From the sequence record MW883059: a stretch of 64,000 nucleotides of DNA. The stretch is one strand, 5' to 3'. This DNA comes from Escherichia phage vB_EcoM_SYGD1. Made by a program: the position numbers and the translations under genes. A model generated the notes under the pieces. The model was not told the origin of the DNA. It saw nothing but the letters and a program-made list of their open reading frames with translations, and ran no database searches. This document shows positions 4,537 to 64,000 of this stretch, one piece after another (within the stretch, counting starts at the first letter, position 1; each line of letters begins with the position of its first letter).

Positions 4537-6714
4537 ATGATTATCACCACCGAAAAAGAAACAATTCTTGGTAATGGTTCTAAATCAAAAGCATTTAGCA
4601 TCGCAGCAAATCCTAAAGTATTTAAAATTCTATCATCTGATTTGTATACAAACAAGATTCGTGCAGTAGTCCGTGAATTGATTACCAACATGATTGATGC
4701 CCATGCTCTCAATGGAAATCCTGAAAAATTTATCATTCAAGTTCCAGGACGATTAGATCCGCGATTTGTTTGCCGAGATTTTGGTCTGGGCATGAGTGAT
4801 TTTGATATTCAGGGCGATGATAATTCTCCTGGGTTGTATAATTCATACTTTAGTTCATCTAAGGCTGAATCTAATGATTTCATTGGTGGATTTGGTTTAG
4901 GTTCTAAATCTCCGTTTAGTTATACTGATACATTTAGTATTACTTCATATCATAAAGGTGAAATTCGTGGTTATGTAGCTTACATGGATGGTGATGGTCC
5001 ACAAATTAAACCTACATTCGTAAAAGAAATGGGTCCAGATGATAAAACTGGTATTGAAATCGTAGTTCCAGTTGAAGAAAAAGACTTTAGAAACTTTGCT
5101 TATGAAGTTTCTTATATTATGCGACCATTCAAAGATTTGGCTATCATTAATGGTCTTGACCGTGAAATTGATTATTTTCCGGATTTTGATGACTATTACG
5201 GCGTAAATCCAGAAAGATACTGGCCAGATCGTGGTGGATTGTATGCTATCTATGGCGGTATTGTTTATCCTATTGATGGTGTTATTAGAGACCGTAACTG
5301 GTTAAGCATCCGCAATGAAGTGAATTACATTAAGTTTCCAATGGGTTCACTTGATATTGCTCCATCGCGTGAGGCTCTTTCACTAGATGATCGTACTCGT
5401 AAAAATATTATTGAGCGCGTCAAAGAGCTTAGTGAGAAGGCATTCAATGAAGATGTAAAACGATTTAAAGAATCTACATCTCCTCGTCATACATACCGTG
5501 AATTGATGAAGATGGGATATTCTGCTCGAGATTATATGATTAGTAATTCGGTCAAATTCACGACTAAAAATCTGTCATATAAAAAGATGCAGAGCATGTT
5601 TGAACCTGACAGTAAGTTATGCAATGCAGGGGTTGTGTATGAAGTAAATCTTGACCCTCGACTGAAACGCATTAAGCAAAGCCATGAAACTTCAGCCGTT
5701 GCATCAAGCTATCGTCTGTTTGGTATTAATACGACAAAAATTAATATTGTTATTGATAATATTAAAAATCGCGTTAATATTGTCCGTGGATTAGCACGTG
5801 CATTAGATGATAGTGAATTTAATAACACTTTGAATATTCATCACAATGAGCGTCTTTTGTTTATTAATCCGGAAGTAGAATCGCAGATTGATTTGCTTCC
5901 TGATATTATGGCAATGTTTGAAAGTGATGAAGTTAACATTCATTATTTGTCAGAAATTGAAGCTTTAGTTAAAAGTTATATTCCAAAGGCAGTAAAAAGT
6001 ACAGCTCCTCGTCCTAAAACTGCTACTGCATTTAAGTTTGAAATTAAAGACGGGCGTTGGGAAAAAGAGGAACTGTTTACGCTCACATCAGAAGCAGATG
6101 AAATTACTGGTTATGTAGCATACATGCATCGTTCTGATATTTTCTCTATGGATGGTACTACATCGCTTTGTCATCCATCTACGAGTATTTTGACTCGTAT
6201 GGCTAATCTTATTGGCATTAATGAATTTTATGTTATTCGTCCGCTTTTGCAGAAAAAGGTAAAAGAACTTGGTCAGTGCCAATGTATTTTTGAAACTCTG
6301 CGTGATTTATATGTAGATGCTTTTGATGATGTAGATTATGATAAGTATGTAGGTTATTCAAGTTCAGCTAAACGATATATTGATAAAATTATTAAGTATC
6401 CTGAACTAGATTTTATGATGAAGTACTTCAGTGTAGATGAAGTTTCTGAAGAATATACACGACTCGCTAATATGGTTAGTTCATTACAGGGTGTATATTT
6501 CAACGGTGGAAAAGATACCATCGGTCATGACATCTGGACAGTAACTAATCTTTTTGATATATTATCAAATAATGCTTCAAAAAACAGTGATAAAATGGTT
6601 GCTGAGTTTACCAAGAAATTCCGTATTGTTTCCGACTTCATCGGTTATCGCAACTCTTTAAGTGATGATGAAGTTTCCCAAATCGCTAAAACTATGAAGG
6701 CCCTTGCGGCCTAA
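4537..6714 (+). CDS. rIIA: rIIA protein (725 aa)
   Basis: Exact T4 rIIA length; N-terminal GHKL-like ATPase motifs; followed by rIIB. Confidence 0.9.
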
Positions 6715-27085: not shown

Positions 27086-27401
27086 TATTCGTCCGGTCGA
27101 TGAGACCGGTCTTTCAGAAAAAGAACTTTCAATTAAGAAAGAAAAGGATGAAATTGCAAAACTGCTTGATCGTCAAGAAAATGGATTTATTATTGAAAAA
27201 ATGGTAGAAGAGTTTGGAATGAGTTATCTTGAAGCTACGACAGCATTCTTGGAAGAAAATTCTATTCCTGAAACTCAATTTGCTAAATTTATTCCTTCGG
27301 GTATAATTGAAAAAATTCAGTCAGAAGCTATTGACGAAAATCTTTTACGTCCTTCTGTTGTTCGTTGTGAAAAAACTAATACATTAGATTTTCTACTATG
27401 A
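27063..27401 (+). CDS. 33: late transcription co-activator gp33 (112 aa)
   Basis: MTQFSLNDIRPVDETGL start; exact T4 length. Confidence 0.85.
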   Translation: MTQFSLNDIRPVDETGLSEKELSIKKEKDEIAKLLDRQENGFIIEKMVEEFGMSYLEATTAFLEENSIPETQFAKFIPSGIIEKIQSEAIDENLLRPSVVRCEKTNTLDFLL

Positions 27402-28051
27402 TTAAACTCCGCATGCCTGCTGGTGGTGAAAGATATATTGATGGTAAATCAGTTTATAAATTATACTTAATGATAAAACAACATATGAATGGAAAGTATG
27501 ATGTAATTAAGTATAATTGGTGCATGCGGGTGTCTGATGCCGCTTATCAAAAGCGAAGGGATAAGTATTTTTTCCAGAAGTTATCAGAAAAATATAAATT
27601 AAAGGAACTTGCTTTAATCTTTATAAGCAATCTTGTTGCTAACCAGGATGCTTGGATTGGTGACATCTCTGACGCTGATGCACTTGTGTTTTATCGTGAA
27701 TATATCGGACGCTTAAAGCAAATTAAATTTAAGTTTGAAGAAGATATTCGCAATATTTATTATTTTAGTAAAAAAGTTGAAGTTTCTGCTTTTAAAGAAA
27801 TTTTTGAATATAATCCAAAAGTTCAATCAAGTTATATTTTTAAACTACTTCAATCGAATATAATTTCGTTTGAGACGTTTATCTTGCTTGATTCGTTTTT
27901 AAATATAATTGATAAACATGATGAACAGACTGATAATTTAGTCTGGAATAATTATTCTATAAAGTTAAAGGCTTATAGAAAAATTTTAAATATTGATTCG
28001 CAGAAAGCTAAAAGTGTTTTCATTGAAACTGTGAAATCTTGTAAGTATTAA
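27398..28051 (+). CDS. 59: helicase loader gp59 (217 aa)
   Basis: Recognisable T4 gp59 sequence and length. Confidence 0.88.
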   Translation: MIKLRMPAGGERYIDGKSVYKLYLMIKQHMNGKYDVIKYNWCMRVSDAAYQKRRDKYFFQKLSEKYKLKELALIFISNLVANQDAWIGDISDADALVFYREYIGRLKQIKFKFEEDIRNIYYFSKKVEVSAFKEIFEYNPKVQSSYIFKLLQSNIISFETFILLDSFLNIIDKHDEQTDNLVWNNYSIKLKAYRKILNIDSQKAKSVFIETVKSCKY

Positions 28052-28052
28052 T

Positions 28053-28685
28053 ATGAATATAGTATATTGGTTTACATTTGAAGACCGTATCAAAAATAAG
28101 ACTCCGCCGTACTACTATATCGGCAGTAAATTAAATTGCTCATTTGAGAATGGAATAATATATGACTCTTCCGGAAAGGAATACTGGAGTTCGTGTAAAC
28201 AAAAAAGATTTTTAAATGCGGTAATGCTTCAAAAACCGAGCGTTAAAATAATTCAAATTGATGATGATTTGGATGTTATTGAAGCAGAGCGAAAATACCA
28301 ACTTGAAGTAAATGCCAGAGATAATCCAGACTATTTTAATCTGGTATATGCCGGTGGCGGATTTGGTGTGAGTGGTGAAACTCATCCAGCCAAAGACCCG
28401 GAAGTTAGAGAGCATATGAGATTGGCTAATTATATGAACCGTGACGATTTTAGACCTTGGAAAACATCACGAGCTAATATAGAGTCTTGGAAATTATCTC
28501 ATATTGCTTACGAGAATTATGTGTTATTATTATCCTCTAATCTGTACGGTAAAACTCCTGGATGGCGAAGAGTTAAAGGTAATATAAATATAACTGATAC
28601 AACTGCTAAATCGATGGTAAAGTATTTCAATTCAGGTTGGATACCTCTCGAAGACCCAGAGTATTGCGAATTATGCCAGCTATGA
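28053..28685 (+). CDS. segG: free-standing GIY-YIG homing endonuclease, SegG-like
   Basis: N-terminal IVYWFT...YYIGSKLN GIY-YIG-like motif; occupies the 59-32 interval where T4 carries segG. Confidence 0.55.
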   Translation: MNIVYWFTFEDRIKNKTPPYYYIGSKLNCSFENGIIYDSSGKEYWSSCKQKRFLNAVMLQKPSVKIIQIDDDLDVIEAERKYQLEVNARDNPDYFNLVYAGGGFGVSGETHPAKDPEVREHMRLANYMNRDDFRPWKTSRANIESWKLSHIAYENYVLLLSSNLYGKTPGWRRVKGNINITDTTAKSMVKYFNSGWIPLEDPEYCELCQL

Positions 28686-28735: not shown

Positions 28736-29644
28736 ATGTTTAAACGTAAATCTACTGCTGAACTCGCTGCACAAATGGCTAAACTGGCTGGAAATAAAGG
28801 TGGTTTTTCTTCTGAAGATAAAGGCGAGTGGAAACTGAAACTCGATAATGCGGGTAACGGTCAAGCAGTAATTCGTTTTCTTCCGTCTAAAAATGATGAA
28901 CAAGCACCATTCGCACTTCTTGTAAATCACGGTTTCAAGAAAAATGGTAAATGGTATATCGAAACATGCTCATCTACCTACGGTGATTACGATTCTTGTC
29001 CAGTATGTCAGTACATCAGTAAAAATGATTTGTACAATACTGACAATAAAGAGTACGGTCTTGTTAAACGTAAAACTTCTTACTGGGCTAACATTCTTGT
29101 TGTAAAAGACCCAGCTGCTCCAGAAAATGAAGGTAAAGTATTTAAATACCGTTTCGGTAAGAAAATCTGGGATAAAATCAATGCAATGATTGCAGTTGAT
29201 GTTGAAATGGGTGAAACTCCGGTTGATGTAACTTGTCCGTGGGAAGGTGCTAACTTTGTACTGAAAGTTAAACAAGTTTCTGGTTTTAGTAACTACGACG
29301 AATCTAAATTCCTGAATCAATCTGCGATTCCAAACATTGATGATGAATCTTTCCAGAAAGAATTGTTCGAACAAATGGTTGACCTTTCTGAAATGACTTC
29401 TAAAGATAAATTCAAATCGTTTGAAGAACTGAGCACTAAGTTCAGTCAAGTTATGGGAACTGCTGCTATGGGTGGTGCCGCAGCAACTGCCGCTAAGAAA
29501 GCTGATAAAGTTGCTGATGATTTGGATGCATTTAATGTTGATGACTTCAAAACAAAAACTGAAGATGATTTTATGAGCTCAAGCTCTGGCAGTTCATCTA
29601 GTGCTGATGACACGGACCTGGATGACCTTTTGAATGACCTTTAA
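28736..29644 (+). CDS. 32: ssDNA-binding protein gp32
   Basis: Recognisable T4 gp32 sequence including zinc site and acidic C-terminus. Confidence 0.95.
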
Positions 29645-30734: not shown

Positions 30735-31561
<827 letters not shown>

Positions 31562-31580: not shown

Positions 31581-31928
31581 ATGAATTTTAATTATTACCC
31601 TATTCTATTAGAAAAAGACACGAAACAGCCAAAGTGGCAGGGTCCTCAGTTTATTAAAGGTGTCTATCAATTAGTAGTTCCTAAAGACAAGATTTATAGC
31701 AGTTGTTTCACTGAATCCGCTTGCAGTATTTTCGGTAATAGTTCTCCGTATTGGAATTTTGACATAAAGCTGGATAGAAATATCGATATTTGGTTGAAAG
31801 CTATGGATATTGGTAATATCATGTTTGATGAGAATAATTATCATATTATTGGTCGCTTTTCCAAACGTGGTAAAGAATTATATTTCACACCTGAAATTGA
31901 GAGAAAATTTGATGCTAAACCGTATTGA
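31581..31928 (+). CDS. hypothetical protein 115 aa inserted between frd and td
   Basis: ORF with no motif I recognise; frd and td are adjacent in T4 as I recall. Confidence 0.45.
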   Translation: MNFNYYPILLEKDTKQPKWQGPQFIKGVYQLVVPKDKIYSSCFTESACSIFGNSSPYWNFDIKLDRNIDIWLKAMDIGNIMFDENNYHIIGRFSKRGKELYFTPEIERKFDAKPY

Positions 31929-31973: not shown

Positions 31974-32522
31974 ATGAAACAATACCAAGATTTAATTAAA
32001 GACATTTTTGAAAATGGCTATGAAACCGATGACCGAACAGGCACAGGAACAATTGCTTTATTCGGTACTAAATTACGCTGGGATTTAACTAAAGGTTTTC
32101 CTGCGGTAACAACTAAGAAGCTCGCCTGGAAAGCTTGCATTGCTGAGCTACTTTGGTTTTTATCAGGAAGCACAAATGTCAATGATTTACGATTAATTCA
32201 GCATGATTCGTTAATCCAAGGCAAAACAGTTTGGGATGAAAATTACGAAAATCAGGCAAAAGATTTAGGATACCATAGTGGTGAACTTGGCCCAATTTAT
32301 GGAAAACAGTGGCGCGATTTTGGCGGTGTAGATCAAATTGTAGAAGTTGTTAATCGTATTAAAACATTTCCCAACGATAGGCGTCAAATTGTGTCGGCAT
32401 GGAATCCAGCTGAACTTAAATATATGGCATTACCACCTTGTCATATGTTCTATCAGTTTAATGTGCGTAATGGTTATCTTGATTTACAATGGTATCAACG
32501 CAGTGTAGATGTTTTCTTGGGT
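31974..32522 (+). CDS. td: thymidylate synthase, exon 1 (183 codons)
   Basis: Ends ...DLQWYQRSVDVFLG at the known T4 td 5' splice site; in-frame TAA begins the intron. Confidence 0.92.
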
Positions 32523-32842
32523 TAATTGAGGCCTAGGTATAAGGTGACTTATACTTGTAATCTATCTAAACGGGGGACCTCTCTAGTAGACAATCCCGTG
32601 CTAAATTGTAGGACTACCCTTTAATAATTTCATCAGGATTAGTTACTTACCGTGTAAAATCTGATAAATGGAATTGGTTCTACATAAATGCCTAACGACT
32701 ATCCCTTTGGGGAGTAGGGTCAAGTGACTCGAAACGATAGACAACTTGCTTTAACAAGTTGAAGATATAGTCTGATCTGCATGGTGACATGCAGCTGGAT
32801 ATAATTCCGGGGTAAGATTAACGACCTTATCTGAACATAATG
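32523..32842 (+). ncRNA. group I self-splicing intron in td, 320 nt, no endonuclease ORF
   Basis: Starts UAAUUGAGGCCU...GUAAUCUAUCUAAACGGGG, ends ...CUGAACAUAAUG as the T4 td intron; 3' half matches recalled T4 core; no internal ORF. Confidence 0.85.
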
Positions 32843-33154
32843 CTTCCATTTAATATTGCATCATATGCTACGTTAGTTCATATTGTAGCTAAGATGTGTA
32901 ATCTTATTCCGGGAGATTTGATATTTTCCGGTGGTAATACTCATATCTATATGAATCACGTAGAACAATGTAAAGAAATTTTGCGTCGTGAACCTAAAGA
33001 GCTTTGTGAACTGGTAATAGGCGGATTGCCTTATAAATTCCGCTATCTTTCTACTAAAGAACAATTGGAATACATTCTTAAACTCAGGCCTAAAGATTTC
33101 GTTCTCAAAGATTATCAGTCCCACGGCGTCTTGAAAGGAAAAATGGCGGTGTAA
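32843..33154 (+). CDS. td: thymidylate synthase, exon 2 (103 aa)
   Basis: Begins LPFNIASYATLVHIVAKMCNL; joined product 286 aa as T4 TS. Confidence 0.92.
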   Translation, partial: LPFNIASYATLVHIVAKMCNLIPGDLIFSGGNTHIYMNHVEQCKEILRREPKELCELVIGGLPYKFRYLSTKEQLEYILKLRPKDFVLKDYQSHGVLKGKMAV

Positions 33155-33177: not shown

Positions 33178-33441
33178 ATGATTTTACGATTTAAAGATAC
33201 TTCTGACGTTGTTCTTTTTACACTTCCTAATCCAAGTGAGTTAGAAGTTCCAGGACCAAATCAGCCTATTATCATTTATGGCAAAAAATATTATACTCAT
33301 AAAATGACTCGTGAGTATTTTGATAATAAAATTTCTACAGTTAAAACTTCTTCTGATTGTTACTATGATATTACTGTTTTAACGGAAAAACAATATGACG
33401 AATTATCACCGCGCGGGCCGTCTATGCCAGGTAGTGAATAA
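33178..33441 (+). CDS. hypothetical protein 87 aa
   Basis: ORF between td and nrdA. Confidence 0.45.
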
Positions 33442-33721
33442 ATATAAATCCGACTTTGATGTTAATATTCACCGTGGTACGTTTTGGGGAAATTACGTCG
33501 GTAAAGATGCTGGCAGCCGGGAGGCTGCCATTGAATTATTCAAAAAAGATTTTATACGTCGAATTAAATCCGGAGAAATAACTAAAGCACATTTAGAGCC
33601 TTTACGTGGAATGAGGCTAGGATGCACATGTAAACCAAAGCCGTGTCATGGTGATATAATAGCTCATATAGTTAACCGATTGTTTAAAGACGATTTTCAA
33701 GTTGAGGACTTATGCAATTAA
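33395..33721 (+). CDS. hypothetical protein 108 aa
   Basis: ORF overlapping neighbours on both sides. Confidence 0.45.
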
Positions 33722-35976
33722 TTAATGTTATCAAAAGTAGTGGTGTTTCTCAGAGCTTTGACCCGCAAAAAATTATTAAAGTTTTATCTTGGGCAGCTGA
33801 AGGAACATCAGTAGATCCTTATGAATTATATGAAAATATTAAATCTTATCTCCGTGATGGAATGACAACTGATGATATTCAGACTATTGTCATTAAGGCC
33901 GCTGCGAATTCTATTTCGGTTGAAGAGCCTGATTATCAATATGTAGCTGCACGTTGTTTAATGTTCGCTCTTCGTAAGCATGTTTATGGGCAGTATGAAC
34001 CACGTTCATTTATTGACCATATTTCTTACTGTGTAAATGAAGGTAAATATGACCCTGAATTATTGTCAAAATATTCAGCAGAAGAAATTACATTTTTAGA
34101 ATCAAAAATTAAGCACGAGCGGGATATGGAATTTACTTATTCCGGGGCGATGCAATTAAAAGAAAAATATCTAGTTAAAGATAAAACCACTGGTCAAATT
34201 TATGAAACTCCACAGTTTGCATTTATGACTATTGGAATGGCATTGCATCAAGATGAACCTGTTGATAGATTAAAACATGTTATCCGTTTTTATGAAGCGG
34301 TATCTACTCGACAGATTTCATTACCAACTCCTATTATGGCTGGTTGCCGTACTCCAACTCGGCAGTTTAGTTCATGTGTTGTTATTGAGGCAGGCGATTC
34401 ACTGAAGTCTATCAATAAGGCTTCTGCTTCAATTGTTGAATATATCTCTAAACGCGCTGGAATTGGTATTAACGTTGGTATGATTCGTGCTGAAGGTTCT
34501 AAGATTGGCATGGGTGAAGTACGCCATACTGGTGTTATTCCTTTTTGGAAACATTTTCAGACTGCTGTTAAATCATGCTCACAGGGTGGAATTCGTGGCG
34601 GCGCTGCTACTGCTTATTATCCTATTTGGCATTTGGAAGTTGAAAATCTTCTTGTTTTGAAAAATAACAAAGGCGTAGAAGAAAACCGTATCCGTCATAT
34701 GGATTATGGCGTCCAGTTGAATGATTTGATGATGGAACGTTTTGGAAAGAACGACTACATTACTTTGTTTAGTCCGCATGAAATGGGTGGCGAGCTTTAT
34801 TATTCTTATTTTAAAGACCAAGACCGTTTCCGCGAATTATACGAAGCAGCAGAAAAAGACCCTAATATTCGCAAAAAGCGTATTAAAGCCCGTGAACTAT
34901 TTGAATTACTCATGACTGAACGATCAGGAACAGCAAGGATTTATGTGCAGTTCATTGATAATACGAATAATTATACTCCGTTTATTCGTGAAAAGGCACC
35001 TATTCGTCAGAGTAACTTGTGTTGTGAAATTGCTATTCCAACAAATGATGTGAATAGTCCTGATGCTGAAATTGGATTGTGTACTCTCTCTGCATTCGTA
35101 CTAGATAATTTTGACTGGCAAGACCAAGATAAAATTAATGAATTGGCAGAAGTTCAAGTTCGTGCTCTTGATAATCTGTTGGATTACCAAGGATATCCAG
35201 TTCCTGAAGCAGAAAAAGCTAAAAAGCGTCGTAACCTCGGTGTAGGTGTTACCAACTATGCAGCTTGGCTGGCAAGTAACTTTGCTTCTTATGAAGATGC
35301 TAATGATTTAACACATGAACTATTTGAGAGATTACAGTATGGACTCATTAAAGCATCCATTAAGCTCGCAAAAGAAAAAGGACCTTGCGAATATTATTCA
35401 GACACTCGTTGGTCTCGAGGCGAATTACCTATCGACTGGTACAATAAAAAGATTGACCAAATCGCAGCTCCAAAATACGTTTGTGACTGGTCGGCGCTGC
35501 GGGAAGACCTTAAGCTCTTTGGCATCCGTAATAGCACATTATCAGCACTTATGCCATGTGAGTCATCTTCCCAAGTTTCTAACAGTACAAACGGTATCGA
35601 GCCTCCACGTGGACCAGTCTCTGTTAAAGAATCAAAAGAGGGTTCCTTTAATCAAGTCGTGCCCAATATTGAGCATAACATAGACCTATATGATTATACA
35701 TGGAAATTAGCTAAGAAAGGTAATAAACCTTATCTTACGCAGGTAGCTATTATGCTGAAATGGGTATGTCAATCAGCTTCAGCGAATACATACTATGACC
35801 CGCAGATTTTTCCAAAAGGAAAGGTTCCAATGTCAATAATGATTGATGACATGTTATACGGATGGTATTATGGCATTAAAAATTTCTATTATCATAATAC
35901 CCGTGATGGTTCTGGTACTGATGATTATGAAATAGAAACTCCTAAAGCCGACGATTGTGCAGCGTGTAAATTGTAA
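33712..35976 (+). CDS. nrdA: ribonucleotide reductase large subunit (754 aa)
   Basis: Exact T4 NrdA length; class Ia RNR motifs. Confidence 0.95.
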   Translation: MQLINVIKSSGVSQSFDPQKIIKVLSWAAEGTSVDPYELYENIKSYLRDGMTTDDIQTIVIKAAANSISVEEPDYQYVAARCLMFALRKHVYGQYEPRSFIDHISYCVNEGKYDPELLSKYSAEEITFLESKIKHERDMEFTYSGAMQLKEKYLVKDKTTGQIYETPQFAFMTIGMALHQDEPVDRLKHVIRFYEAVSTRQISLPTPIMAGCRTPTRQFSSCVVIEAGDSLKSINKASASIVEYISKRAGIGINVGMIRAEGSKIGMGEVRHTGVIPFWKHFQTAVKSCSQGGIRGGAATAYYPIWHLEVENLLVLKNNKGVEENRIRHMDYGVQLNDLMMERFGKNDYITLFSPHEMGGELYYSYFKDQDRFRELYEAAEKDPNIRKKRIKARELFELLMTERSGTARIYVQFIDNTNNYTPFIREKAPIRQSNLCCEIAIPTNDVNSPDAEIGLCTLSAFVLDNFDWQDQDKINELAEVQVRALDNLLDYQGYPVPEAEKAKKRRNLGVGVTNYAAWLASNFASYEDANDLTHELFERLQYGLIKASIKLAKEKGPCEYYSDTRWSRGELPIDWYNKKIDQIAAPKYVCDWSALREDLKLFGIRNSTLSALMPCESSSQVSNSTNGIEPPRGPVSVKESKEGSFNQVVPNIEHNIDLYDYTWKLAKKGNKPYLTQVAIMLKWVCQSASANTYYDPQIFPKGKVPMSIMIDDMLYGWYYGIKNFYYHNTRDGSGTDDYEIETPKADDCAACKL

Positions 35977-36707
35977 TGAATTATCAAAAAATCTATAATG
36001 ACCTAATTTCCCGAGCTCAGGCTCGGGAACATTTATCCGAGTATAAAGAGACACATCATATAGTCCCTAAATGCATGGGAGGTTCTGATGATAAAGAAAA
36101 TTTAGTTGAATTAACAGCTAGAGAACATTTTATAGCGCATCTATTACTATGCAAGATAAATGAAGGCCATTTTGGTCTTGCCTCTGCGTTAACGTTAATG
36201 GCAACAGATAAAGCTGGTAATAGAATTAATAACAGATTGTATAGCTTGCACAGAAAATTATTTGCTAAAGCTAATTCTGATTTCTTTAAGAAATATTGGA
36301 AAAATAATCCTCATCCTAGAGGAATGTTAGGCAAGCATCATAAAAACGAAACTAAACAACATGTATCAAACGTGAATAGGTATGCATGCCCATCTATCGA
36401 AATACATAAATTCTCATTAGATGGGGATTTCATAGAAACCTTTCACTCTATTGCCGCAGCGTCCAGGTCAGTTAATGGAAACGGGTCAAATATCAAATAT
36501 TGTGCTGAGGGTAAATTTCAATATGCCTATGGATTTCGATGGGCATATCAACTTGATGCAAAGTTTGACAAAATACAACCAAGAGATTATAAAGGAATCC
36601 GCGGTAAGAAATGGATTAATAATGGAAGTGAATGCACGCTTATAGGTAAAGATGATATTATACCGCCAGGTTGGAAACGCGGCAGAATTTTAAAGAGGAA
36701 AAATTAA
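35976..36707 (+). CDS. mobE: free-standing HNH homing endonuclease, MobE-like
   Basis: HNH motif ETHHIVPKCMGGSDDKENLVELTAREHFIAH; start overlaps nrdA stop and stop overlaps nrdB start; same locus as T4 mobE. Confidence 0.8.
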   Translation: MNYQKIYNDLISRAQAREHLSEYKETHHIVPKCMGGSDDKENLVELTAREHFIAHLLLCKINEGHFGLASALTLMATDKAGNRINNRLYSLHRKLFAKANSDFFKKYWKNNPHPRGMLGKHHKNETKQHVSNVNRYACPSIEIHKFSLDGDFIETFHSIAAASRSVNGNGSNIKYCAEGKFQYAYGFRWAYQLDAKFDKIQPRDYKGIRGKKWINNGSECTLIGKDDIIPPGWKRGRILKRKN

Positions 36708-37885
36708 TGTCTACAGTTTTTAATACAAATCCAGTTGATGTTTTAAAAGAACCTATGTTTTTTGGTTCAGGTCTTGGTATTGCGCGTTATGATATTCAAC
36801 GTCATAAAGTTTTTGAAGATTTGACCGAAAAGCAATTGTCGTTTTTCTGGCGGCCTGAAGAAGTAAACTTAATGATGGATGCTGCGCAGTTTAATAAGCT
36901 TCCTCAGTATCAGCAAAATATTTTTACTAACAACCTGAAGTATCAATCACTTTTGGATAGCATTCAGGGTCGTGCGCCGTCTGCTGTACTTATGTCATTA
37001 ATTTCAGACCCAAGCCTTGATACATGGGTTGCTACATGGACTTTTAGTGAAACTATTCATAGTCGTTCATATACTCATATCATGCGAAATCTTTATACTG
37101 ATCCGTCAAAGGTATTTGATGAGATTGTATTAGATGAAGCTATTATGAAACGTGCTGAATCCATTGGACGTTATTATGATGACGTTCTGATTAAAACTCG
37201 TTATTGGGAAAACGCTAAAGCTGCTACAGCATTTAAATTTGAAATTAATGCAGACGAAGACGTTATTGAAGATGCTATTGAGCATGAAATGTATTGGAAA
37301 CGTGAACTAATGCGCTCTCTTTACCTCTGCCTGCACGTAATCAACGCATTGGAAGCTATTCGTTTTTATGTATCTTTCGCATGTACCTTTAACTTCCATA
37401 AAAACATGGAAATCATGGAAGGTAATGCCAAGATTATGAAGTTCATTGCGCGTGATGAGCAGCTTCATCTTAAAGGCACCCAATATATTATTCGTCAGCT
37501 TCAATCCGGTACTGATGGCGATGAATGGGTTAAAATTGCTCAAGAGTGTGAACAAGAAGCAGTTGATATTTTCATGGAAGTTAACCGCCAAGAAAAAGAT
37601 TGGGCAGTTCATTTATTTAAAGATGGAGATGTTCCTGGATTAAATACAAATAGCATGTGGAGCTTTATTGATTACTTAACTGTATCTCGTATGAAACAGT
37701 GTGGTCTTCCATGCCCAATTACCGATGCTCCGGTTAAACATCCATATCCTTGGATTCGTGAATACCTTAATTCTGATAATGTTCAATCCGCGCCGCAAGA
37801 AGTAGAACTGTCATCTTACCTTGTAGCACAGATTGATAATGATGTTGATGATAAAGTTATGATGAGTTTTAAAAAATATTTTTAA
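36707..37885 (+). CDS. nrdB: ribonucleotide reductase small subunit, uninterrupted
   Basis: Begins MSTVFNTNPVDV as T4 NrdB; single continuous ORF. Confidence 0.93.
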   Translation: MSTVFNTNPVDVLKEPMFFGSGLGIARYDIQRHKVFEDLTEKQLSFFWRPEEVNLMMDAAQFNKLPQYQQNIFTNNLKYQSLLDSIQGRAPSAVLMSLISDPSLDTWVATWTFSETIHSRSYTHIMRNLYTDPSKVFDEIVLDEAIMKRAESIGRYYDDVLIKTRYWENAKAATAFKFEINADEDVIEDAIEHEMYWKRELMRSLYLCLHVINALEAIRFYVSFACTFNFHKNMEIMEGNAKIMKFIARDEQLHLKGTQYIIRQLQSGTDGDEWVKIAQECEQEAVDIFMEVNRQEKDWAVHLFKDGDVPGLNTNSMWSFIDYLTVSRMKQCGLPCPITDAPVKHPYPWIREYLNSDNVQSAPQEVELSSYLVAQIDNDVDDKVMMSFKKYF

Positions 37886-62111: not shown

Positions 62112-62804
62112 TTATAAATTAACTGTTTTTCTAAGTATTCTTAGTTTGTACATTGATAATCCAGTAGCTTTAGAAGCATCTTTCATGCATTTATACTTAA
62201 CACCATTTACTTCTATAGGTTTAGCAGCTGGGTTATTAGCTCCTGAATTATCTGGCATGTTATCTTTAATTTTCTGAATAGATTTAGCGGAATGTTTCCT
62301 TCCATACATGCCATTATTTTTACCTGATTGATTGATAGAATGCAATCTTTTAGCTTCTTCAGTCCATTTTGTTGGGTTCATTCTTTTAGTTTTACTAATT
62401 TTACTTCCCCACGTAATTGGACGATTTTTCATGAGTTTTGACATATATTGTTTATGTTCTTCCGTATGGTGTTTTCCGTAAAATGGATTACCTTCACCTG
62501 ATTGAAGTTTTGCCATTTTACGACGTTCCCAGGCGTAAGATTTATTAACGTGTCTTTCATGAGTATTTGAATTCATTCCCATACATATAACGGCTTTAAT
62601 TATACCGTAATGGTTTGGATGAATTTTAGCTAAAAGTTTATGAGCTATAAAATGCTCTTCAGCTGTTAGTTCTACCAAATTACACTTATCATCTGTACCA
62701 CCCATACATCTAGGAATTATATGATGAGTTTCAGTGTATCCATTAAGGCGAGCCCGATTCTGGGCTCTATTAATTAAATTATCATATATTAATTTATAAT
62801 TCAA
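62112..62804 (-). CDS. free-standing HNH homing endonuclease, paralog of the MobE-like gene
   Basis: N-terminus MNYKLIYDNLINRAQNRARLNGYTETHHIIPRCMGGTDDKCNLVELTAEEHFIAH parallels MobE-like ORF; basic C-terminal repeats; start overlaps uvsW stop. Confidence 0.8.
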   Translation of the reverse strand: MNYKLIYDNLINRAQNRARLNGYTETHHIIPRCMGGTDDKCNLVELTAEEHFIAHKLLAKIHPNHYGIIKAVICMGMNSNTHERHVNKSYAWERRKMAKLQSGEGNPFYGKHHTEEHKQYMSKLMKNRPITWGSKISKTKRMNPTKWTEEAKRLHSINQSGKNNGMYGRKHSAKSIQKIKDNMPDNSGANNPAAKPIEVNGVKYKCMKDASKATGLSMYKLRILRKTVNL

Positions 62805-64000
62805 AGTTTAACCTCTTTCATCACATAATTAAACTTCTCATCAGCATAACGCTGAATACGATCAAGTCCATGTTTTAAAAGATAGTTTAAATGCGAGTAT
62901 TTTTTAGAAGATGTTTTTGATTTAGAAACTACGCCCGCGTCATCTATGAGGTCCCAGACTGTTGCGATTGTTTTAGAACCATGCTTACGTAATACGCGAC
63001 CTATTGTTTGCAATACAATAATTTTAGATTTAACGCCGTGCGCTAAAACAACGTGATGCAGATTTTTAACTGAAATACCAGTAGAAAATACACCATAACT
63101 AGCTACTATAATTATTCCTTTACCGTTTTCAGCTAAGGTTTTCATTATGTTTCGAGTTTCGGTATCAACTTCCCCTGATACGTAATAAACTTTATCGTAT
63201 TCATTTTTAATTAAATCGAAAATAGCTTTACCATGTGATACATGCTTAAACATGACAAAAGCGTTTTCATCTTTTTGCGCAAGTTTAATAGCTAATTTAG
63301 CGATCCATTTATTTCTTTTACTGAGCCCAGTAATAATTTTTATTTCTTCTTGGTAAGTTTTTCCCTTTAATTTAGTAGTGAACTCATCAGGATAACGAAG
63401 AAAAATACTATTAATTTTTAACTCAGTTACTTGTCCATCTTCCATTAATTTAGAAGTCGTTACTGGCTTAAATATTTCACCAAACATTCCAACATACTGC
63501 ATGATATTAGCTTTGCCATCACGTAATGAACCTGATAGACCAAATTTGAACATGCAGTTATTTAAACCTGATATAATAGATGAAATACTTTTTCCTGTAG
63601 CAAGATGGCATTCATCATTCATCATCATTCCAAATTGTGAAAACCATTCTTTTGGTTGTTTTACTACAGTTTGCCATGTACCAACAATTACCGGTGCATC
63701 ATTTTTATATTTATCATCTTTTGATGCTCCGCCACCAATTTTCTTTATCATTGCATGACTGAATAAACGATAATCAACAAAGTCATCAGCCATCTGAGTT
63801 GTCAGAGCAGTTGTTGGAACAATGATAAGAATTTTACCTTCATAATTTTCCAAATAATAACGTGCAAGCAAAGCTTGAATTAAAGATTTACCTGCGGATG
63901 TTGGAAGATTAAGAATTCTACGACGATTAACTAATCCTTCGAACACTGCATCTTTTTGATACCAATGCGGTTCAATTCTTTTATTTCCTGAATAGATTTC
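62801..64000 (-). CDS. uvsW: UvsW helicase, C-terminal part (N-terminus beyond window end)
   Basis: SF2 helicase C-terminal motifs (QTIGRVLR); ORF open to window edge. Confidence 0.8.
   Translation of the reverse strand, partial: EIYSGNKRIEPHWYQKDAVFEGLVNRRRILNLPTSAGKSLIQALLARYYLENYEGKILIIVPTTALTTQMADDFVDYRLFSHAMIKKIGGGASKDDKYKNDAPVIVGTWQTVVKQPKEWFSQFGMMMNDECHLATGKSISSIISGLNNCMFKFGLSGSLRDGKANIMQYVGMFGEIFKPVTTSKLMEDGQVTELKINSIFLRYPDEFTTKLKGKTYQEEIKIITGLSKRNKWIAKLAIKLAQKDENAFVMFKHVSHGKAIFDLIKNEYDKVYYVSGEVDTETRNIMKTLAENGKGIIIVASYGVFSTGISVKNLHHVVLAHGVKSKIIVLQTIGRVLRKHGSKTIATVWDLIDDAGVVSKSKTSSKKYSHLNYLLKHGLDRIQRYADEKFNYVMKEVKL

Follow-up and report, generated by a model that had tools for sequence, protein, structure and literature searches.

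A 243-codon RB3/RB10-type HNH endonuclease gene occupies the mobE locus between nrdA and an intron-free nrdB in a Tequatrovirus genome

In the window (the whole 64-kb stretch of phage DNA analysed here), the gap between nrdA and nrdB is filled by a 243-codon HNH open reading frame (ORF; Table 1), which we interpret, with a probability of roughly 85%, as an intact, free-standing gene for an HNH homing endonuclease at the mobE locus, in the allelic form of phages RB3, RB10 and U115. The window phage is a Tequatrovirus, and no fewer than 40 deposited phage genomes share the whole arrangement with 95-98% identity. The gene, its position, the overlaps with its neighbours and the intron-free nrdB are thus already known from deposited, annotated genomes, and experiments in T4 have analysed the locus in detail; the discovery value is small. 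The comparative value is modest: the locus appears to be a clean case of tail swapping among homing endonuclease alleles, and it shows that, within 6 kb, three mobile elements (mobE, the nrdB intron and I-TevI in td) have been gained and lost independently of one another. Such a comparison could guide simple crosses that address target specificity and competition between alleles. A literature search on mobE with NUMOD retrieved no paper describing allelic classes.

Table 1. Features of the nrdA-nrdB region and other mobile elements in the window
Feature	Position	Strand	Details
segG-like ORF	28053-28685		free-standing, homing-endonuclease-like
td group I intron	32523-32842	+	about 320 nt, without I-TevI ORF; Rfam RF00028
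nrdA, ribonucleotide reductase large subunit	33712-35976	+	754 aa; TAA stop 35974-35976
TAATG, nrdA stop/HNH-gene ATG (35976-35978)	35974-35978	+	1-nt overlap; sequence, identical in T4 and RB10
HNH homing endonuclease gene (probable), free-standing	35976-36707	+	243 aa; RB3/RB10-type allele, mobE locus
Segment common to T4 mobE, codons 1-57, HNH catalytic core	35976-36145	+	blastn, about 96% over the first 170 nt
Hairpin, 9-bp stem, 4-nt loop, then short U-tract	36008-36029	+	inside 5' end of HNH ORF
Allele-specific C-terminal part, codons 58-243	36146-36705	+	no blastn match to T4 mobE/nrdB.1
Candidate nrdB middle-type promoter, CGCTTAT, 12 nt, TATTAT	36637-36661	+	by eye; T4 analogy
AAGAGGA, nrdB Shine-Dalgarno	36693-36699	+	inside last HNH-gene codons; sequence
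TAATG, HNH-gene TAA (36705-36707)/nrdB ATG (36707-36709)	36705-36709	+	one base in common; sequence
nrdB, ribonucleotide reductase small subunit	36707-37885	+	uninterrupted, 392 codons, 1179 nt
Equivalent of T4 MobE nick site	36828-36832	+	alignment; T2-like, not diverged as in T4
Empty intron site, GCAT/GTACC	37382/37383	+	blastn break and splice reconstruction against T4
HNH ORF	62112-62804	minus	free-standing, homing-endonuclease-like

The original prediction placed a MobE-like HNH gene between nrdA and nrdB, sharing its first and last codons with the nrdA stop and the nrdB start, and both points hold: the ORF lies at the T4 mobE position, and a TAATG sequence marks each junction. The upstream gene was identified as nrdA by the Pfam families ATP-cone, Ribonuc_red_lgN and Ribonuc_red_lgC (E=4.6e-137) and is 96% identical to T4 nrdA. 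Its overlap with the HNH gene was seen in all carriers examined and, as UAAUGA between nrdA and mobE, has already been described in T4 (PMC2988022), so the overlaps are not a product of chance; the second TAATG is also present in RB10, U115, PYps55T, pSe_SNUABM_01 and ESH35. The start of the HNH gene is not preceded by a Shine-Dalgarno sequence, which suggests that translation of the gene is coupled to that of nrdA. The HNH gene itself matches a homing endonuclease family (phrog_655, E=2.4e-57), with a Pfam NUMOD1 domain scoring above the cut-off (25.9 bits) and an HNH domain 1 bit below the gathering threshold (20.4 bits). It matches the U115 gene with 100% and RB10 mobE with 99.2% identity, and the 243-aa allele is represented in about 54 GenBank phage records.

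When the window was aligned to the T4 locus, as had originally been proposed, the blastn match ran continuously from nrdA to position 36145 at 96% identity, and then similarity ended. At the protein level, residues 1-60 are nearly identical to T4 MobE (BLASTP, E=4e-41). The term MobE-like is therefore accurate for the N-terminal HNH part and fails for the C-terminal two thirds, which are unrelated to T4 MobE and contain NUMOD1. The C-terminal part consists of a helical linker, a NUMOD1 helix-turn-helix at residues 147-177 (about 36414-36506, by Pfam) and a conserved tail with the motifs GKxWINNG and IPxGWxRGR; no protein similarity to T4 NrdB.1 was found across codons 58-243. The sequence comparisons thus point to a two-module protein, with a His-Me (HNH) head essentially as in T4 MobE and a different, presumably DNA-binding NUMOD1 tail. 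Mutation of the HNH residues, which would have spoken against an active nuclease, is absent: the motif is intact, and H27, H28, N42, H51 and H55 are invariant in a family alignment of 22 sequences. An in-frame deletion of 30 residues (33-62) in T4 MobE abolishes nicking (PMC2790892), and 26 of these 30 residues are identical in the window protein. The AlphaFold model (pLDDT 85) had as its best Foldseek match in the PDB the endonuclease I-HmuI (1U3E; probability 0.99, 185 aligned columns, 14% sequence identity), and it is predicted to combine the beta-beta-alpha-metal fold of I-HmuI-like His-Me finger nucleases with extended DNA-binding modules. The global TM-score against I-HmuI is low (0.21-0.29), as would be expected for an extended multi-domain model, and does not prove the same architecture. 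A sequence search of the PDB had yielded no more than a borderline hit, an HNH similarity to the maturase of a group II intron (E=0.13), which is why the fold was predicted and compared.

The hairpin inside the HNH ORF, 32 nt from its start, folds with a predicted energy of -16.7 kcal/mol (z=-3.84; none of 200 shuffled sequences was equally stable), and its stem and loop are identical in T4 and RB10. In mobE-locus genes of T-even phages, an internal stem-loop terminator is expected about 27 nt after the AUG. The counterpart in T4 mobE was shown by experiment to be a weak intrinsic terminator (PMC2790892), and by this analogy the hairpin is predicted to be a terminator as well. A scan for consensus promoters and terminators missed it, owing to the short U-tract, and found nothing convincing 5' of nrdB. 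The candidate middle-type promoter near the end of the ORF was not picked up by the sigma-70 scan; in T4, a middle promoter of nrdB is located inside mobE (PMC2790892).

For T4 mobE, promoterless expression, the terminator, nicking and gene conversion have been described (PMC2790892, PMC2988022), and we infer a similar course for the window gene. Lacking a promoter and a ribosome-binding site of its own, the HNH gene would be transcribed from the nrdA promoters, with part of the transcripts ending at the internal hairpin, and reinitiation after termination at the UAAUG overlap would give it a low level of translation. Expression of nrdB would be restored by signals in the 3' part of the endonuclease ORF, where the Shine-Dalgarno sequence is certain and the middle promoter is a candidate. 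In a mixed infection, the enzyme would nick or cut a relative that lacks the gene near the nrdA/nrdB junction, and recombinational repair would then copy the endonuclease gene together with its flanks into the recipient.

The downstream gene encodes an NrdB (Pfam Ribonuc_red_sm, E=8.8e-37) in which motifs of the di-iron centre and the radical are present (SETIHSRSY, EAIRFY and RDEQLH). It starts at ATG 36707, with the same N-terminus as in T4 and T2 (MSTVFNTNPVD) and with AAGAGGA upstream; the longer nrdB entry in the ORF list (36671-37885, TTG) merely reflects the first in-frame start codon. T4 nrdB carries a 598-nt group I intron, whereas nrdB here is one continuous ORF, as originally claimed. 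A cryptic intron was ruled out by blastn against T4, by the Rfam scan, which detected no group I intron in nrdB, and by collinearity with the uninterrupted T2 NrdB, which is equal in length and identical at 379 of 392 residues, the site of the T4 intron being uninterrupted in the window. The only group I intron found by Rfam in the 64 kb is that of td (32513-32794, 70.3 bits), in which, compared with T4, about 690 nt covering most of I-TevI are deleted; the intron is identical in U115. The search for further mobile elements in the window thus yielded this single retained intron and, as predicted, three free-standing homing-endonuclease-like genes, one of them segG-like and two of the HNH type.

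On the strength of its invariant catalytic residues, a dN/dS of about 0.1, its presence and absence within one species and a predicted fold that best matches I-HmuI, the HNH gene looks functional. The range of dN/dS is 0.07-0.12 in both domains, the ORF is full-length and free of frameshifts in the ten copies examined, and PYps55T, which has the gene, belongs to the same species as PM123, which does not; most Tequatrovirus records have only a spacer of about 55 bp between nrdA and nrdB. Intact orthologues of 241-243 aa occupy the same junction in Gaprivervirus and Gelderlandvirus, as found in a scan of IMG/VR with NrdB, which returned mostly distant relatives, so that ten GenBank loci were used for the population-level comparison. 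All this is hard to reconcile with a decayed or domesticated remnant that is no longer a mobile nuclease and is kept only for the nrdB expression signals inside it, given that constraint extends over the catalytic and the DNA-binding parts alike and that both states coexist in one species. Endonuclease genes do decay in this region, as illustrated by I-TevIII of T4 and by the td intron of the window without I-TevI, the Shine-Dalgarno sequence and candidate promoter of nrdB do lie inside the HNH ORF, and the authors of the T4 study proposed that such signals select against deletion of mobE (PMC2790892); even so, we regard a remnant as very improbable. For an intact endonuclease, the next issue is the target. 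The nick site of T4 MobE was mapped at nt 122-126 of T2 nrdB (PMC2790892), and a plain MobE orthologue would be expected to nick the non-coding strand of nrdB at these positions in phages lacking the gene. The locus, the catalytic head and the regulatory hairpin are all as in T4 mobE, and RB3 was in the set that Wilson and Edgell split into mobE-containing and mobE-lacking phages. The T4 target is, however, not simply transferable, owing to the unrelated C-terminal domain: the presumed DNA-binding part resembles neither T4 MobE nor NrdB.1. Moreover, all eight carriers of the 243-aa allele compared are T2-like, and hence of the T4-MobE-sensitive type, at about nt 114-131 of nrdB, whereas T4 and slur04 are diverged there, and phages with the T4-type or the 213-aa NUMOD3-type allele show heavy divergence around nt 100-140. 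A shared target is accordingly unlikely, and the T2-like sequence retained at the nick site suggests that the 243-aa allele has a different one. Over nt 7-600 of nrdB, the 8 carriers and 9 non-carriers compared, which are phylogenetically non-independent, showed no fixed difference, and with a target in that interval the enzyme would cut its own genome too. Carriers and non-carriers differ consistently only at the 3' end of nrdA and in the spacer, with mobE-linked substitutions in the last 28 nt of nrdA (encoding CAACKL with the gene and CSSCKL without it). The CSSCKL-coding nrdA end of gene-lacking phages, together with the spacer, is one candidate target. We tentatively propose, at somewhat less than even odds, that at least three allelic endonuclease genes with swapped tails occur at the T-even junction and that the 243-aa allele recognises a target other than that of T4 MobE. 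If so, its carriers would stay sensitive to T4-type MobE, and the alleles could compete by super-homing.

The history of nrdB allows two readings as well. The facts that td keeps an intron and nrdB does not are as originally stated, but the oddity they seemed to imply does not stand: the T4-type nrdB intron is present in 118 records against about 636-669 with related nrdAB, the intron-free gene is the commonest state in related phages, and the td intron itself lacks I-TevI. The lineage would then simply carry the intron-free allele that is common in these phages, and the intron of nrdB is probably an independent optional element. Alternatively, an ancestor could have had this mobE allele together with an nrdB intron encoding I-TevIII, a combination still present in RB3 and RB10, and could later have lost the intron by recombination with an intron-free allele. 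In RB10 and pSe_SNUABM_01 this mobE allele does occur together with the nrdB intron, and the reduced td intron shows that the window phage has lost mobile DNA nearby. Against this, relatives are mostly intron-free at nrdB, at least 40 of the about 54 records with the 243-aa allele are intronless, and the site at 37382/37383 is scarless and reads as in T2; the data fit either direction of change. We consider secondary loss rather unlikely and favour the common intron-free allele.

The closest known systems are annotated versions of the same gene. RB10, which belongs to the species Tequatrovirus RB3, has the 243-aa gene with both TAATG overlaps ('mobE, putative homing endonuclease', note nrdB.2, KM606999), but in this phage nrdB is interrupted by an intron encoding full-length I-TevIII, and the td intron encodes I-TevI. 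The corresponding gene of U115, U115_239 ('putative homing endonuclease', MZ753803), also has both overlaps, and this phage resembles the window in its intronless nrdB and its td intron without I-TevI. T4 MobE (141 aa; Wilson and Edgell 2009, PMC2790892) shares the locus, the UAAUGA overlap, the hairpin and the HNH core, and is unlike the window protein beyond codon 57, with a NUMOD3-type instead of a NUMOD1-type tail; the T4 tail appears to be split between mobE and nrdB.1, and T4 nrdB, unlike that of the window, is diverged at the MobE nick site. A third form, the 213-aa HNH-NUMOD3 endonuclease of slur04, HY03 and LZ7 (P0032), occupies the same junction with the same N-terminal residues (about 60), and its tail, with NUMOD3 repeats and a CxxC...H...C motif, is 99% identical to T4 NrdB.1. 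NrdB.1 was accordingly rejected as the missing C-terminus of the window protein, to which it has no similarity. The 243-aa NUMOD1, the 213-aa NUMOD3/zinc-finger and the split T4 types thus appear, from sequence comparison, to have a common catalytic head, insertion point and regulatory hairpin, and to differ by exchange of their DNA-binding tails.

Another endonuclease gene fills the nrdA-nrdB gap in phage U5, namely hef, whose product targets nrdB and which is termed 'a unique endonuclease' in a review (PMC2988022). By this description Hef is set apart from the window ORF, which has the HNH head of MobE. Sandegren et al., in 2005, are said to have found hef unrelated to mobE. In its predicted overall layout, the window protein resembles I-HmuI of Bacillus phage SPO1, a nicking homing endonuclease of the HNH type, which is likewise an extended protein composed of a nuclease head and helical and helix-turn-helix DNA-binding modules; I-HmuI is, however, encoded within an intron, whereas the HNH gene described here is free-standing.

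The HNH gene between nrdA and nrdB, which belongs to the RB3/RB10 type of the mobE locus and encodes 243 aa, has been seen before: public genomes already contain annotated copies of it. The window is part of a T4-like (Tequatrovirus) genome, and the 4.6-kb nrdA-denA block is represented, as one collinear piece with 95-98% identity, in at least 40 deposited phage records, with the best match in U115 (98.0%). The gene is identical to U115_239 (732/732 nucleotides), its product is 99.2% identical to the RB10 'mobE, putative homing endonuclease' (species Tequatrovirus RB3), and copies at least 95% identical were found in 54 records, RefSeq/GenBank duplicates included. Most related phages, e.g. T2, RB27, RB32 and RB68, have only a spacer of about 55 bp between nrdA and nrdB, and both states occur within one species (PYps55T with the gene, PM123 without), so the insertion is optional and polymorphic. 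Other relatives have nrdA-nrdB inserts of about 640 or 697 bp. Orthologs of 241-243 aa (59-77% identical) occupy the same junction, with equally tight spacing, in Gaprivervirus, Gelderlandvirus and metagenomic contigs. In IMGVR_UViG_2974742932 and one related contig, nrdA and nrdB are separated by about 1.6 kb without similarity to the HNH gene, so this gap has other occupants as well.

Features of the window around the nrdA-nrdB junction and at two further endonuclease loci (assigned from our own ORF and domain calls and comparison with the T4 annotation)
Feature	Coordinates	Strand	Remark
gene 59	27398-28051
210-aa ORF	28053-28685	+	phrog_7504
gene 32	28736-29644
frd	30980-31561
115-aa ORF	31581-31928	+	phrog_1928 (function unknown)
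td	31974-33154		intron-split
nrdA.2	33178-33441
nrdA.1	33395-33721
nrdA	33712-35976
HNH ORF	35976-36707
nrdB	36707-37885
denA	ends 38323
rnlA, alc, spanins, pseT			downstream of denA
230-aa HNH gene	62112-62804	-	Mob-type
uvsW-like helicase ORF	62801-63946	-

Whole-locus alignment with T4, an Rfam search and an alignment of the HNH family confirmed the observation behind the original prediction, a MobE-like endonuclease between nrdA and an intronless nrdB, and supported its interpretation. The TAATG overlaps it described were read directly from the sequence, at 35974-35978 (nrdA stop, HNH start) and 36705-36709 (HNH stop, nrdB start). The final HNH codons contain a strong Shine-Dalgarno sequence for nrdB (AAGAGGA, 36693-36699), and the HNH gene itself has none. 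Mutation of the HNH motif, considered in the original prediction, is not observed: H27, H28, N42, H51 and H55 are invariant among 22 aligned homologs. In-frame deletion of residues 33-62 of T4 MobE abolishes nicking (PMC2790892), and 26 of these 30 residues are identical in the two proteins. The dN/dS ratio is 0.07-0.12, in the nuclease head and the C-terminal tail alike, for seven Tequatrovirus copies differing from that of the window and one Gaprivervirus copy. The best PDB match of the AlphaFold model (pLDDT 85) is I-HmuI (1U3E), a nicking homing endonuclease. The probability is 0.99 over 185 aligned columns; the global TM-score is low, which is to be expected of a protein with several domains in an extended arrangement. 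Conservation and the structural model argue for an active enzyme.

In T4, two genes, mobE (141 aa) and nrdB.1 (83 aa), lie between nrdA and nrdB. The match to T4, about 96%, runs through nrdA and on into mobE for 170 nt, including the UAAUGA overlap and a hairpin at 36008-36029 (9-bp stem, 4-nt loop, -16.7 kcal/mol, z=-3.84), demonstrated in T4 mobE to be a weak intrinsic terminator (PMC2790892). Similarity ends abruptly at 36145/36146, just past the last HNH-motif histidine, and restarts at the nrdB start. In the encoded protein, residues 1-60 are almost the same as in T4 MobE and residues 61-105 weakly similar, whereas the remainder is unrelated to either MobE or NrdB.1. Pfam places a NUMOD1 motif in this tail (25.9 bits, above the cut-off), which also has the conserved motifs GKxWINNG and IPxGWxRGR. 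At this site slur04, HY03 and LZ7 carry a third allele (213 aa), in which the head is the same but the tail is of NUMOD3/zinc-finger type. The designation 'MobE-like' is therefore right only in part: it describes the position, the nuclease head and the regulatory hairpin correctly, but not the tail. With its DNA-binding tail exchanged, the protein represents a separate allele. T4 mobE and nrdB.1 (5717-6417 of the T4 comparison locus, minus strand) themselves look like one HNH-NUMOD3-zinc-finger gene split by frame changes: NrdB.1 shares 99% identity with residues 131-213 of the unbroken slur04 allele, and NUMOD3-like repeats between mobE and nrdB.1 span all three frames.

The one remaining nuance is the tail swap and what it may imply for target choice. 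At the mapped T4 MobE site (T2 nrdB nt 122-126), T4 and a NUMOD3-type carrier are strongly diverged, and T2-like sequence is retained in 8/8 carriers of the 243-aa allele. Within 400-600 nt on each side, a comparison of eight carriers with nine non-carriers, a small and phylogenetically non-independent sample, yielded only two fixed differences: nrdB codon 2 (AGC to TCT) and the terminal 28 nt of nrdA, where CSSCKL gives way to CAACKL alongside synonymous changes and an altered stop context. The different tail, the T2-like T4 site and the fixed differences suggest that the target is not that of T4 MobE; it is possibly the nrdA end plus spacer, which the insertion itself disrupts. The nrdA-end substitutions also accompany the other alleles at the locus, so linkage to the 5' end that all of these share may be their whole explanation. 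As a caveat to the target inference, other free-standing phage endonucleases reportedly cut their own genome too. Phage 215Ecol030PP has an nrdB intron and, where T4 MobE nicks, a T4-like diverged nrdB sequence, yet no nrdA-nrdB endonuclease gene; its lineage could have lost mobE or received a co-conversion tract alone.

By analogy with T4 mobE (PMC2790892, PMC2988022), the HNH gene would be a promoterless cassette transcribed from nrdA promoters, with UAAUG coupling holding translation low and the internal terminator lowering transcript levels. Its 3' end would house signals required by nrdB, certainly including the Shine-Dalgarno sequence; a MotA-box-like CGCTTAT followed by a 12-nt gap and TATTAT (36637-36661) is only a candidate nrdB promoter. 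Upon co-infection, the enzyme would nick or cut a gene-less genome near the junction, and recombination-dependent repair would then copy the gene and its flanks into the cut genome.

The nrdB gene truly lacks an intron. As predicted, it is one continuous ORF of 392 codons, equal in length to the uninterrupted T2 NrdB and identical to it at 379/392 positions. Similarity to T4 runs up to 37380 and again from 37383, the empty site of the 598-nt T4 intron falling exactly at 37382/37383 (GCAT|GTACC). Over the 64 kb, Rfam detected a group I intron only in td (32513-32794, 70.3 bits) and none in nrdB, leaving no cryptic nrdB intron by any of these three approaches. The stretch equivalent to T4 nrdB exon 1 (36706-37380) is 84% identical to T4, compared to 96-97% in the flanks, and is much nearer T2 and PM123; T4 is the diverged one, in keeping with co-conversion or an immunity patch around its intron and the site nicked by its MobE. 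Related nrdAB sequences were found in 636-669 records and the T4-type nrdB intron, at 80% coverage or more, in 118.

The claim that td retains its intron also holds, on the Rfam match, with the I-TevI ORF lost. The intron spans about 320 nt (32523-32842) and is free of any endonuclease ORF; relative to T4 it lacks about 690 nt, in which most of I-TevI is encoded, with an 8-nt ambiguity at the deletion junction (32620-32627). The U115 intron is identical, and elsewhere intermediate sizes occur (query spans of about 644 nt vs 520 in the window and about 1215 with I-TevI). Upstream, a 115-aa ORF without a Pfam hit separates frd from td, two genes that directly overlap in T4; it is found in T2, RB10 and U115 as well.

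A second Mob-type free-standing HNH gene, with a ETHHIIPRCMGG...NLVELTAEEHFIAH head and NUMOD3-like repeats, lies directly downstream of, and overlaps, the uvsW-like helicase ORF; it matches the head of the nrdA-nrdB endonuclease (phmmer E=2.6e-31). Between genes 59 and 32, in the position of T4 segG, the 210-aa ORF matches phrog_7504 'homing endonuclease' (E=3e-133) and had no hit in the Pfam search; U115, otherwise collinear, lacks the segment of about 620 bp that holds it.

That Mob proteins have the HNH head in common and differ in their C-termini has already been stated in the T4 literature (PMC2790892, PMC2988022). The nrdB intron occurs both with the 243-aa mobE allele (RB10, pSe_SNUABM_01) and without any mobE (SHFML-11, 215Ecol030PP), and the td intron is optional, being covered in 229/742 records. 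Thus mobE, the nrdB intron and I-TevI assort independently, in agreement with the literature on T-even mobile elements.
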